NCBI GenBank assembly: GCA_030390025.1
Contig: CM059432.1
Location: 39,992,001-40,056,000 of the forward strand
Source of the DNA: Squalus acanthias
Lineage: Eukaryota
DNA length: 64,000 nucleotides
Direction of reading: 5' to 3'
Shown here: positions 35,179 through 41,067 of the stretch, in pieces
Numbering within the stretch: position 1 is the first letter of the stretch
How the letters are laid out: every line of letters begins with the position of its first letter
Program-made: the position numbers and the translations under genes
Notes under the pieces: model-generated
Told to the model about the DNA's origin: nothing
Databases searched by the model: none
Seen by the model: the letters and a program-made list of their open reading frames with translations, nothing else

Positions 35179-35476
35179 GGCAGGTTGAGAATGCAGTTAA
35201 AAAGGCTTACGGGATTCTGGGTTTCATAAATAGAGGTATAGAGCAGCGGTTCCCAACCTTTTCCTTTATGCGGACCACTACATCGTCATCAACAGCTTTT
35301 ACGGACCACAACGTAAGCAAGCCGTTTAAAACATTTTCTGAATAATGTCACAACTTACCTCTGGCACTATTATGACCCTTCTCTTCACTTGCCATGTTCA
35401 ATGTGAACTTGTTCTTCGCCATTCTGTTGCAGTTTTTACATTCTTGTCTTGCTTTATGGTTTTGACGAAAGGTCTT

Positions 35477-35509
35477 CTGACGAAAGGTCTTCGACCTGAA
35501 ACGTTAACT
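35477..35509 (+). ncRNA. Hammerhead-like motif in a Penelope-like pseudo-LTR fragment
   Basis: CTGACGA-AAGGTC(TTC)GACCT-GAAA-CGTT-AACT; stem I disturbed by a 15-nt tandem duplication. Confidence 0.6.
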
Positions 35510-36617
35510 CTGTTTCTCTCTCCACGGATGCTGCCTGGCCTGCTGAGTTTTTCTAGTGTTTTCTGCTGTTATTTCTTATGGTTTTGAAGCCGCCTGAATT
35601 CTGTGCCATTTACCGTCATGGCCTTAAATCCCTTTTTCTCTTCTGGATGAATTGTTTGTTAGTTCCATTGAACCAGGCTGGACTGTAATGACGCTCAGTT
35701 CCTTTGCTTTGCATGGGTACACGTTGATCCATTGCATTCAGAATCACCTCCTTGAAGGAACTCCATAGAACAACTACAGCAACAACCTCCACATCTAGTT
35801 TAAACACTCACCACATTCTATCTGTCCTGCCTGCCAACACCTCAAACTATTTTGTTTCGGTGGAACCCATCAGGTCTCTATAAGCTCCCTCTATTCCGAA
35901 AGCTGTAGCAATGTTTCATGAAAGGAACCCCTGTTTCACTACAGCAAAGGCTCAGCGACGCTTGGACTGTCTAATTCCCCTCTGTCTCTCTTGACTAACA
36001 CATGACATGGGTAGTATTTCAGAACGTGCTAAAATTGACACAGTATTGGGGACTCACGGACAATCCTGGAGGGGTGTGTAAAGCATGTTTTGAAATTAGC
36101 TGGAGAGAAATGTGAGGTGACGGGTCTCGAGGGGCAGACTGAGGAGAGGGTCTGTACATTGATTGAGGACATGTCAAAAAGAGCCAGAAGAATTTGGGAT
36201 TCAGAAACACAAACCTCTCCGAAGGGTTACTTCCTCCCCGCCTGTTCCGAATTTTTGCCAGACACTTTTCAGGTGTAACATGAATGGTGCGGGGGCGGGG
36301 GGGGGGGAGTGGGGGCGGTGGTATTTGTGTCGTCACAGTCAATCCTCTGCCCGAACCAAACTCCCCCAGTCACAGGATTAGAATGGCGGAGGCCGGCAGA
36401 TTCCCCTTCACTGTTGGTGCAATCATTCTTTTCACAATTAAGTGCTCTATTTCTGTTACTTTCGATTTACATACTCGGTTTTTATCGAACAGTGATTATT
36501 TTATATCGGAATAATGTTTAAGGGATGTGGTGTTTTCATTGTCTGTACAATAACTCTGTGACCCAGTGTGAGAAGTAAAACACAAACCGCCCAGCGTGGG
36601 GCTCGAACAATCCGGAC

Positions 36618-36690
36618 AGCTGTTATCACAGTTGTTTAGAGCGTGGTGCTAATATCACTAAGGGCACGGGTTTAATCCCTGTACGGGTCA
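36618..36690 (+). pseudogene. tRNA-Ile(AAT) pseudogene
   Basis: CAGTTGTTTAGAGCGTGGTGCTAATA...GGGTTTAATCCCTGTACGGGTCA resembles vertebrate tRNA-Ile-AAT with many mismatches; preceded by a tRNA-Lys 3' fragment at 36588-36608 (-). Confidence 0.8.
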
Positions 36691-37698
36691 TCGGCAGTTT
36701 ATTTCTTACTTTTTCTGTTTCTCCTGACACTGAAACTCCAGACTTTACAAAAAATCTACACAAACTGTCAGGGGGAAATTATTTTCAATAACATCCATTT
36801 CATCTTTGCACTGGGCGGAGCAACACATCTCTCTGTTTTTGTCTTTCTTCGGTTTGCTGATAAACGTTTAACACGCAGCCTGTTCCCGTTAATGATCACA
36901 AGCAGTAACAGACAGAGCGTGTCTGACCGCCCCGCGATGTGTAAAAGGCATCAGTTTAGGACAAATGCATCAAATCAAATGTTCACCCGGCACCGAGAGA
37001 GACAAAAACCAGAGAAAGTTGCAGAAGGAGATCGAGAAATAAAAGCTAAATACAGCCAATAGAAACAGATTCCATCCTTGATGTCTCTCTCTATTCAAAC
37101 CCAACCCTTCATTGGCGGATAAAAGACTTCAGTTTAAATTGGTAAGTTCGAGAAAAGGACCCAAAGAAAGAGACACAAAATATCTAAAAGCCGCCGAATT
37201 CCACCTGAGCTATTTCGGCCTCACATCAAAGTGATTTTCTTGTCATTCTTTTAAAGAAACTCTAATCCCTCCTGCTCATTAATCACTTCGGAGGAATGGG
37301 ACCCGACCAGATCTCGGAGCTCAGGTTATGTTAATTTTCTGCTGACGTGTTTATAAACATCTAAAGCTGACACTCCAGGGGAGACCTCACAGGGTTGGAC
37401 ACGTAGTGAAGTATACTGAAGTTTTTATAAGAAGATACAGAGCACAACATGTGTGTAAAATTCCCCGTTGTTTTCCCGGCACTGATGCATTGTGAAGAGT
37501 GAGACTGGCCTGAAGTCCCACTGAGCCGCACTGACGGTGAAATTATATGAAGTTCAACGAGAGAGAGATAAGAGTCCAGAATCATGGAGAGATTTTCTGA
37601 TAGTGTTGTTGAATCTCATTCGCATCAAACACTCCTTGGACTCCCTGCCGCGGAATTTAGAGCTGGGGATCGCCTGTAAAATCAGCAGTAAAAATAAC

Positions 37699-37770: not shown

Positions 37771-38545
37771 CTGTCTGCAACAATTCTCTCTGTCTGTCTT
37801 TATCAGTAAATCGAACGGCCAAAGCCCGGTTGAAAGATGGATTCCTCTCACTGATCGATCATAAAACCCAGATCTTCTGTTATTGCACCTTCTAAGATCA
37901 GCCATGATCTCATTGAATGGCGGGGCAGGCTCGAAGGGCCGAATGGCCTACTCCTGCTCCTTTTTCTTATGTTCTTAAACATTCACATCCCTTTTGCTCA
38001 GTATTTATTTCTCACTTTTTTAATTCTTTTCGTGCTTTTTCTCAGAAGCGTTTCACGGTAGTTATTAATTAGAAGGAAGAAATGAACAGAAGTGATTTAC
38101 TGGAATGGTACCAGGGATGAAGGATTTCAGAGTGTGGGGGCCTGGAGAAGCTGGGGTTGTTCTCCTTAGAGCAGAGGTTTTGACAGAGGTGTTTAAATTC
38201 ATGAACGGGTTTGATATCGTAAATGAGGAGAAACATTTTTCCAGTGGTTAAAGAGTCGGTGACTAGAGGACACAGATTGAAGGTGATTGGCAGAAGAATC
38301 CGAGGCGAAATTAGAAACCTTTTTTTTTTAAACTGCGAGTTGTTGGGATCTGGAATGCACTGCCTCAATTCACAATTAAACAGATGCGTCCCAATAAATG
38401 AATAATGAATTCAGATATATCTACAGACACTTGTAACTTGCAGAGGTAATAAACATTTACATCGAACACAAGTCAGGAATACATTTGTATCTAGCGGGAA
38501 TGCACCCAGTATATTGACAGCTCTCATAGCTGCTGGGTGGAGCAT

Positions 38546-38608
38546 TCCTTGGTGGGCCGGGAGTTGGAATTCGGTGCAACCAGAGCACGGGTTTGATTTC
38601 CGGTCTGA
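38546..38608 (+). pseudogene. Highly degenerate tRNA-Glu-like pseudogene
   Basis: TCCTTGGTGG...GTTGGAATTCGGTGC...CGGGTTTGATTTCCGGTC then a T-run. Confidence 0.5.
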
Positions 38609-38898
38609 TTTTTATAAAACAGTTGTGCAGTTTATTAAATCAATTACACCAACATATAATTGAAGGCAGTATCACGATGAATAATTGTTTTAATCGCCAT
38701 TAATAAACCGATAACTTTCTGTTGCAGAATGGAGGAAATGTTAGCATGTTGGCCGAATGACAGTCAGACTTTAACATGTATTTGTGATGTGCGTATAATG
38801 AGCCTTTATCCGTTCCCATCCCAAAGGATTGCAGCACTTTCAAACAAGAAGCAACCAACCTCTGTGGGATCATAAGAGAATATTTTGTTCTTTAAAAA

Positions 38899-38973
38899 AT
38901 GCCCCGCTGGGAAGCGAACCCAGGCTCTTCCTGTATACTAGACAAGCTCTTTGACCAGCTAAGCCACGGAGCC
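38899..38973 (-). pseudogene. tRNA-Thr(AGT) pseudogene
   Basis: GGCTCCGTGGCTTAGCTGGTCAAAGAGCTTGTCTAGTATACAGGAAGAGCCTGGGTTCGCTTCCCAGCGGGGC followed by a T-run. Confidence 0.85.
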
Positions 38974-41067
38974 AACTCACGGCTTCAATTTCTCTGCTCC
39001 CCTCACTGATATCTGGTACCTGTGGTATCGTGTTCCACATTCCAACCACTATTTGCATAAAAAAGTTTTTCCTGAATTCCCTACTGGATTTATTATTGAG
39101 GATCTTATATTTATGACATCTAGTTTTACTTAGTGTGACACAAGAGGACTGGCGGCTGCTGTTGTATAAAACCCACTGTCAAAGACCCACACTCTGTACA
39201 TGCACACCTGAGGTTGCATAATAGTGGGGACACTGGTGAAGATTGTTGAATTGAGGGGGCACTGGTTGGGTTTATATGATAGAGTGGAGCACTACTTGCC
39301 ATTGTGCAGTAGTGAGGTGGGAAATATTTTGGTGAATTTGTCTGGAGCTGATTTTTCGGCCCAGTTGATTTGCTCCTTCCCGAAAACCAACCCGCCCTCC
39401 ATCCACAGCAGGTTTTCACTTCCATCAGCTCATCCCCAAAACCCAGCTTTGAACAGCAATAAAAACACTGGAACCACAGGGCGGGTCATTCAACATCTGT
39501 GGAGACAACAGACATGTTTATTTTAGGGGTTTGAACCATTTTTTCACGGACCACCTGCAGTACCCTCGCAGACCACTGGTGGTCCGCGGACCACAGGTTG
39601 GGAACCACTGGTATAGAGTACTAAAGTGTGGAAATTATGATGAACCTTTATAAAACACTGGTTTGGCCCCAACTGGAGTATTGTGTCCAATTCTGGGCAC
39701 CACACTTTAGGAAGATTGTGAAGGCCTTAGAGAAGGTGCAGAAAAGATTTACGAGAATTATTCCAGGAATGAGGGACTTCAGTTACGTTGATAGACTGGA
39801 GAAGCTGGGGTTGTTCTCCCTAGAGCAGAGAAGATTGAGAGGAGATTTGATAGAGGTGTTCAAAATCATGATGGGTCCAGACAGAGTAGATAGAGAGAAA
39901 TTGTTCCCATTGGCGGAAGGGTCGAGAACCAGAGGACACAGATTTAAGGTGATTGGCAAAAGAACCAAAGGCGACATGAGGAAAAACTTTTTGACGCAGC
40001 GAGTGGTTAAGATCTGAAATGCACTGCCTGAAAGGGTGATGGAGGCAGACTCAATCTAATCTTTCAAAAGGGAGTTGGATAAGCATCTGAAGGAAAAAAA
40101 ATTGGAAGGCCTACAGGGAAAGGGCAGGGGAGTGGGACTAGCTGAGAGTCGACACGGGCTCGATGGGCCAAATGGCCTTCTTCCGTGCTGTAACCATTCT
40201 ATGATTCTATGATTTGTATCTGGCTGCAGAAATGCAGCGCTCAAATTGTTTTTCCTGGTCAAGTCAGAATAAATAAATGTGTGATTATATACATACATGT
40301 TTTATAGGCAATGGTTTTGATCTTAACAACATTTTTAAAACAACATGAAAATCTGCTTTGAATTTTCTACTTATATTTACCAATACTCTTTTTTGGTTCT
40401 AACTTATTCAATAAAACTTTTAAGGAAGGAGCTGGGCAGTGCAGTTGGTTAAACACTGTCACCGGGAGTTTTCTTGAATATTCCCTTGATCAGCTGCCAT
40501 AACTTCAGCGGGAGATCAGTAGAAATGCCAGATATATACGAAAACGGGGTTTCTGCCAAAGTGACAGCGACTGTGACCGTTTGGGAGAATACCCAAAGAT
40601 TACCAGTCTCGCTGCTTCTATATTGGACTATGATTCCCATAGAATGAGGCTCCCACAGCTGGTGACCACATCAACAAAACCCTGCTGAATTTTTTGGTTT
40701 TCACTGAGATTTCCTGGCTGCCGCCAGACTTACTGGAACTCGACTGGAACCCTTCAGCTGCCAGGTTTCCTGATCTGCCATTGATGGCGAACGATCTATG
40801 TACAAGTGCACCGATCCGTCCTGTCCAACCGCTGGTATTTGTGCTTCTGGTCATTTAGTTACTGAAGACTCAGTCCAGGTTATTGATTTGACCAGGTGAT
40901 TTGAACACCATTTCAAAGACCCAGGAGTTAAATGTGAAACAGAAGTTAAGTTTGAGGCAAGCTGCCTCATTAAAATATTTTAAAGGATAGACACGCCTCC
41001 AGAGAGGAGGTTAGTGTGGATTCTTTATCGCAGTCAAGACCGCCTACGGCCCAAGCACCCAAGGTCC

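Follow-up and report, generated by a model that had tools for sequence, protein, structure and literature searches.

A putative Buster-type hAT element with several decaying tRNA genes in its interior in the genome of Squalus acanthias

A 64,000-nucleotide (nt) stretch of the Squalus acanthias genome (GenBank assembly GCA_030390025.1, contig CM059432.1, positions 39,992,001 to 40,056,000 of the forward strand; hereafter the window, in whose own numbering all positions are given) contains a hAT element of 4,367 nt (35244-39610) in which decayed copies of transfer RNA (tRNA) genes lie on both strands. The element is apparently non-autonomous and of the Buster type, its interior is likely to be a block of a distant tRNA gene cluster, and on balance we think it probable that this block was carried in as a unit by a transposase acting in trans. 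Gene capture by such elements is already known; a cargo of tRNA genes seems to be unreported.

The element is bounded by 16-nt terminal inverted repeats (TIRs; 35244-35259 and 39595-39610, identical at 15 of 16 nt), outside of which the perfect 8-nt target-site duplication (TSD) GTATAGAG is found at 35236-35243 and again at 39611-39618, both on the forward strand. With up to two mismatches allowed, the TIR motif occurs twice in the 64 kb, solely at the ends of the element (0.27 occurrences expected; 2 of 100 shuffled sequences reached two). The surrounding DNA is a fragment of a CR1 long interspersed nuclear element (LINE), of which the 5' part (35179-35243, forward) is 89% identical to 25467-25531 and the 3' part (39619-40208, forward), which continues in register, is 86-89% identical to 25532-26120. 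Rejoined with a single copy of the 8-mer, the flanks align across the junction to the CR1 copy at 25467-25807 (310 of 347 positions) and match a second copy at 15341-15015 (228 of 328). Because this alignment runs unbroken through the junction, 35244-39610 is one insertion, not two, into one CR1 fragment. A preliminary description of this DNA had stated that TIRs and an 8-bp TSD bracket 4.4 kb, which is exact in its coordinates, and had named an origin of the two TIRs from separate insertions as the finding that would speak against a single element, which the continuity of the flanks with the CR1 sibling rules out.

According to published definitions, hAT elements have short TIRs (5-27 bp) and an 8-bp target duplication, and the target consensus of Buster elements is nnnTAnnn (PMC3517528). 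The short TIRs, the 8-nt duplication and the lack of transposase coding are all found here, and GTATAGAG agrees with the Buster consensus. The left end (35244-35350, forward, inner boundary approximate) comprises the TIR and GGACCAC at positions 29 and 60, the right end (39541-39610, forward) comprises GGACCAC/GTGGTCC subterminal motifs and the TIR, and GGACCAC is confined to at most 65 nt from either end of the element. Queried with a 25-letter right-end motif, metagenome contigs yielded eight loci, six of them from one metagenome, and viral contigs yielded none. Both ends are present in five of the eight loci, spaced 306, 308, 334, 369 and 738 nt; L001, L003, L004, L005 and L008 were compared with the shark element as Buster-like MITEs (miniature transposable elements with inverted repeats). 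The right end of the shark element is 85-95% identical to ends of metagenome elements over 33-67 nt, the duplications of the latter match at 6/8 to 8/8 positions, and TA occupies positions 4-5 in all 13 of the 8-mers that flank metagenome loci, as it does in the shark TSD. The ends are asymmetric in both, with GGACCAC at matching distances from the left end (29 and 60 here, 29 and 59 in L001, 28 and 60 in L004). This likeness ceases at about 105 nt from the left and about 70 nt from the right, and the shark element, at 4,367 nt, is unlike the metagenome elements of 306-738 nt; no tRNA gene was found in the eight metagenome loci. Short TIRs that start with CAG and an 8-nt nnnTAnnn duplication are likewise shared with MITEs of the Buster family such as Mar (PMC3517528). 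The element may thus be classed as a Buster-type hAT by its target and end structure only, without a partner transposase. At one metagenome locus (L006, 1350-1746) about 320 nt that likewise start with CAG interrupt the right hAT end, perhaps a second element within the subterminal motif, and in L008 the start of the left TIR is doubled near 1698. A splice-donor-like motif at 35360 (reverse), where the left hAT end of the shark element passes into the interior, may be due to chance.

The preliminary description had reported no transposase, and none has come to light. Thirty frames of at least 60 amino acids (aa) overlap the element, the longest stop-to-stop frame inside it being 128 aa; Pfam found no transposase family in 26 of the 30, with one sub-threshold match to UBR4_N. 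When 19 frames of the window, including that of a DDE transposase, were compared with the element, matches arose only via frames of reverse transcriptase regions. The frames of two of the eight metagenome loci are all too short for a transposase. As judged from its reading frames, the element is non-autonomous and without a transposase.

Of the five tRNA-derived pieces previously listed in the interior, tRNA-Lys(CTT) and tRNA-Thr(AGT), recognized by both ARAGORN and Rfam, a decayed tRNA-Ile(AAT) and a tRNA-Lys fragment are upheld, and the identity of the fifth as tRNA-Glu is not. ARAGORN called two tRNA genes in the whole window, Lys-CTT and Thr-AGT, both within the element. The least decayed copy is tRNA-Lys(CTT) (37698-37770, reverse; 37.2 bits with Rfam), which has an intact B box and a T5 run downstream; its defects are a C at position 33, one broken D-stem pair and one absent acceptor base. 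The tRNA-Thr(AGT) pseudogene (38899-38973, reverse; 37.0 bits) has lost A58 of the T-loop and has a T6 run directly downstream. The tRNA-Ile(AAT) pseudogene (36617-36690, forward), with CpG-type changes in the B box and a T5 run about 20 nt downstream, reaches 24.2 bits with Rfam (E-value 0.12), under the gathering score; its best matches in a reference set of 29 tRNA genes, mostly prokaryotic or viral, which were taken from viral contigs and picked with the motif of the relic described below, are Ile-AAT genes, with a score of 93 that is partly due to construction of the set. Head to head with this pseudogene is a 21-nt 3' fragment of tRNA-Lys (36589-36609, reverse), which has kept an intact B box, the acceptor half and a T4 run downstream, shares 17 of 18 nt with the full Lys copy (repeat family D12) and lies only 7 nt from the Ile gene, so that its 5' part must have been deleted. 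The fifth piece, presumed to be Glu-like, is a weak tRNA-like relic (38545-38612, forward) with a T5 run and a T-arm that is B-box-like but decayed; it has no Rfam match at E-values up to 10, and ARAGORN sees it at the 70% threshold only, a setting that gives 196 calls in the window (the relaxed thresholds gave 37 and 196 calls, mostly noise). Its best match in the reference set is not a Glu gene, and the score of 50, against at most 39 for shuffled sequences, is partly built in. By folding energy, the Ile and Thr copies cannot be told from shuffled sequences (z about -0.5), and the z of -2.2 for the relic comes from a hairpin, not from a cloverleaf.

A run of T4 to T6 lies downstream of all five pieces and CCA is found in none of them, in agreement with the preliminary description. 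The longest word common to both flanks of each piece is 6-8 nt, and words of at least 8 nt were shared by 171 of 2000 random pairs. The 3' trailers of the two Lys copies differ, and none of the tRNA pieces recurs in the rest of the 64-kb window, unlike the young retro-tails of the cargo. The genomic T-runs, the lack of CCA, the absence of flanking duplications above chance and the occurrence on both strands indicate that the pieces are DNA-level gene copies rather than retrocopies, as had been proposed. Heads of tRNA-derived short interspersed nuclear elements (SINEs), the origin put forward as the alternative, were considered and rejected: no body, tail, duplication of their own or repeat copies are present in the window.

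A further proposal, that the element disperses sites for RNA polymerase III (Pol III) and TFIIIC, is weakened for this copy, in which a consensus B box is found in the two Lys copies only. The strict B-box consensus has three matches in the window, all within the element: the two Lys copies and 39536 (reverse), which is at the inner edge of the right hAT end and is probably a chance match. The B boxes of the Ile and Glu-like copies are mutated by CpG-type changes and that of the Thr copy by the loss of A58. The element would deliver at most one or two TFIIIC sites, and any effect on Pol III looks small because the B box is intact in the Lys copies only. The very uneven decay of the copies suggests that some of the genes may already have been dead at the source.

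About a third of the cargo of approximately 4.2 kb is retrotransposon debris, to which the preliminary description made no reference; annotated parts make up 41% of the element, and about 59% is neither repeat nor tRNA. Next to the left hAT end is an old LINE-like piece (35355-36040, reverse), 59% identical from 35796 to 36038 to the CR1 at 8077-8324 (E-value 3e-7); we take the rest of it to be LINE-like too. A 63-aa frame (35619-35807) was examined as a possible transposase or exon remnant and discarded, with no Pfam match and no protein relative, only weak endonuclease-family leads (0.75-0.79). A young nested repeat tail (35466-35587, strand not assigned; 87-91% identical to copies at 12223 and 27431), presumably Penelope-like, starts with a 15-nt tandem repeat and has a 12-nt flanking duplication, TTATGGTTTTGA, at 35454 and 35576. 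Another young tail, of the CR1/SINE type (37891-37977, forward), is 91-94% identical to five other copies in the window. Two old CR1 3' pieces are located at 38087-38368 (forward, with deletions and frameshifts; 69-71% identical to CR1 at 25650 and 39739) and at 39019-39163 (reverse; about 65% DNA identity, tblastn E-value 2e-6). An old repeat tail that adjoins the right hAT end (39452-39540, strand not assigned) has weak matches of 67-75% (E-values 8e-4 to 0.016) and is likewise assumed to be Penelope-like. The old CR1 pieces of the cargo are thus 59-71% identical to CR1 copies of the window, versus 86-89% for the host CR1 when compared with its sibling. By this measure the cargo seems to predate the host site, which would imply that it arrived as a block and fits badly with a later accumulation. 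The non-repeat cargo does not recur within 35 kb to the left or 24 kb to the right, and the external origin that had been proposed for it is supported, with no source copy in the 64-kb window.

The closest known counterparts are the Pack-TIRs, of which Tan et al. (2021) report 370 from 100 genomes of animals; hAT is the commonest carrier, with 208 (PMC8277862). As in Pack-TIRs, DNA that is not derived from transposable elements lies between the ends of one TIR element, here also a hAT, with a target duplication; the size is within the 100-5,000 bp search range of that study (PMC8277862), and the cargo is not a retrocopy. The definition of a Pack-TIR includes a TIR-free parental copy of at least 90% identity (PMC8277862); the parental locus apart, the features agree, and the element would appear to work like a Pack-TIR. 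Unlike Pack-TIRs, it has a cargo about 19 times their median of 224 bp (PMC8277862) that consists of several tRNA genes; the word 'tRNA' appears nowhere in the main text or the 12 supplementary files of Tan et al. The elephant shark, the sole cartilaginous fish of that screen, has 0 cases (PMC8277862). Two routes to Pack-TIRs are described there: gap filling in a resident element, which accounts for most cases and yields a single copy, and template switching followed by transposition, which accounts for four multicopy cases far from their parent; the parent lies within 15 kb in 160 of 281 cases (PMC8277862).

In the course of events that we favour, a template switch during repair or replication would have placed DNA of a tRNA cluster between the ends of a short hAT element, of which about 105 and about 70 nt would be left; the block would already have included remnants of old LINEs and, probably, some tRNA genes that were no longer alive. 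The loaded element would then have been cut and pasted into the CR1 at an nnnTAnnn site, giving rise to the 8-nt duplication, and the remaining tRNA genes would have decayed afterwards, acquiring CpG-type changes in their B boxes. Large tRNA clusters are reported for sharks and rays (bioRxiv 2025.06.08.657570), and multicopy Pack-TIRs are always far from their parent in the data of Tan et al. (PMC8277862). We lean to arrival as a unit because no parent is found within 35 kb on one side and 24 kb on the other, because the cargo so far exceeds the median and because subterminal motifs are kept at both ends. A variant, in itself improbable, is that two neighbouring short elements on either side of a tRNA-cluster piece transposed jointly by their outer ends, with loss of the inner ones; this would account for a large cargo between single left and right ends, and a route through neighbouring elements has been argued for plant Pack-TYPE elements (PMC8903248), but neither an inner TIR (the motif occurs at the two ends only) nor an inner GGACCAC more than 65 nt from an end is present. 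With this variant included, we hold arrival as a unit to be quite probable. The element is now most likely a neutral passenger.

Some considerations weigh against transposition of the loaded element. Only 4 (1.4%) of animal Pack-TIRs are multicopy, and 91 of 97 primate Pack-TIRs have an orthologous cargo-free element (PMC8277862); the unique top hit required by Tan et al. may lead to an undercount of families. A perfect duplication is expected equally if the element was filled in place. Activity in AnBuster is very limited with a left end of 64 nt or a right end of 58 nt (PMC12637253), and the retained ends of about 105 and about 70 nt may be marginal for transposition. No second copy or source locus was seen in the window, and no autonomous partner was found. 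Identity to window copies is only a rough clock, as subfamilies other than those of the window copies may be represented in the cargo. It is a real if doubtful possibility that a short hAT element resident in the CR1 underwent an internal break and that gap repair copied 4.2 kb into it from a distant tRNA cluster or tandem array, leaving a single-copy element that never jumped. Such filling is the main route for animal Pack-TIRs (PMC8277862), short elements with matching ends exist in other organisms, and the TSD, the TIRs and the age of the cargo fit it equally well; the lack of a source in the window, as against parents within 15 kb in 57% of Pack-TIR cases, and a cargo some 19 times the 224-bp median, larger than the largest human case of 3,585 bp, argue against it. 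Filling in place stays alive because of the base rate among Pack-TIRs and the short retained ends. A pile-up, in which independent insertions of SINEs, tRNA-headed LINEs and retro-tRNAs struck a short hAT element later and no block was captured, is very improbable and largely refuted. Two features speak for it: retroelement debris accounts for about a third of the interior, and a 12-nt duplication flanks one of the tails. Against it, the tRNA pieces come from four distinct isotypes or loci, lie on either strand and end in T-runs, with no body, tail or duplication; none recurs in the window, the only called tRNA genes of the 64 kb are inside the element, the age of the old pieces seems to exceed that of the host, and the 59% that is neither repeat nor tRNA is left over.

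Other mobile elements are known with comparable associations. The hAT of Pyrenophora with a histone H3 gene also carries a member of a multicopy housekeeping family, but it is multicopy itself (10 and 16 copies) and partly autonomous, and its cargo is protein-coding (PMC3538342). Helenus, Ajax and Cassandra (PMC10886601) and Dada (PMC8869645) are likewise tied to tRNA or 5S genes; the first three differ in being long terminal repeat (LTR) retroelements that keep the small-RNA promoter (PMC10886601), and Dada in that it inserts into tRNA genes (PMC8869645). The shark element, in contrast, is a DNA transposon around several decaying tRNA genes that give no sign of use. The tRNAs associated with transposable elements in birds concern SINEs (PMC8044555), and in the accessible part of a review of ribosomal DNA (rDNA) and transposons, Pokey is the one DNA transposon listed as containing rDNA spacer (PMC10946416). 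By title or abstract opening, no DNA transposon that carries tRNA genes was found in the literature searched, which did not extend to repeat databases. The locus is a clean and unusually large capture of host DNA by a hAT element, in a lineage with 0 cases in the screen of Tan et al.; it changes no principle, as such elements take up DNA at hand and the tRNA copies look dead.

It is conceivable, though we rate it as rather unlikely, that 4-kb Buster-type Pack elements form an amplified family in sharks, of which this copy is a member, and that they have scattered a piece of a tRNA cluster. If so, tRNA genes of a vertebrate would have been dispersed by way of a DNA transposon, which would help to explain, besides SINEs and tandem duplication, why sharks have unusually many tRNA loci. 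The preprint that reports very many tRNA loci in shark genomes drops tRNAscan-SE scores below 50 (bioRxiv 2025.06.08.657570); copies such as those described here, at 37 bits on the generic Rfam model, which is a different scale, may be missed by such counts. Among sequencing runs, 20 listed data sets from 9 studies share part of the element's 31-letter words, the best share being 0.34, which was not counted as evidence. The share is at least 0.20 in 13 of the 20, five of these being small sets of 110-255 million letters, and only about 0.10 of the words fall in young repeats, hAT ends or tRNA pieces; no RNA data set is among those listed. This would fit a multicopy element diverged by about 5%, and equally a multicopy source array or unrecognised repeats.

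LINE reverse transcriptases are abundant in the window, and its repeats resemble shark or ray repeats. A direct repeat of 1,019 nt with 97.8% identity (41067-42081 and 48050-49067) encloses three frames, of 621 aa (42039-43904), 363 aa and 628 aa (45817-47703); the first has a weak zinc knuckle, and the last matches no Pfam family at an E-value of 0.001. The whole, 41067-49067, has the look of a young LTR element, about 8 kb long, whose coding content is poorly recognised. A DDE_Tnp_4 transposase frame of 394 aa (23507-24688, reverse), presumably of the Harbinger type, has a second copy with 73% identity at approximately 60045-61039. The frame 7576-8325 (forward) has a GDSL esterase domain just upstream of a LINE frame, which is the arrangement of ORF1 in CR1.

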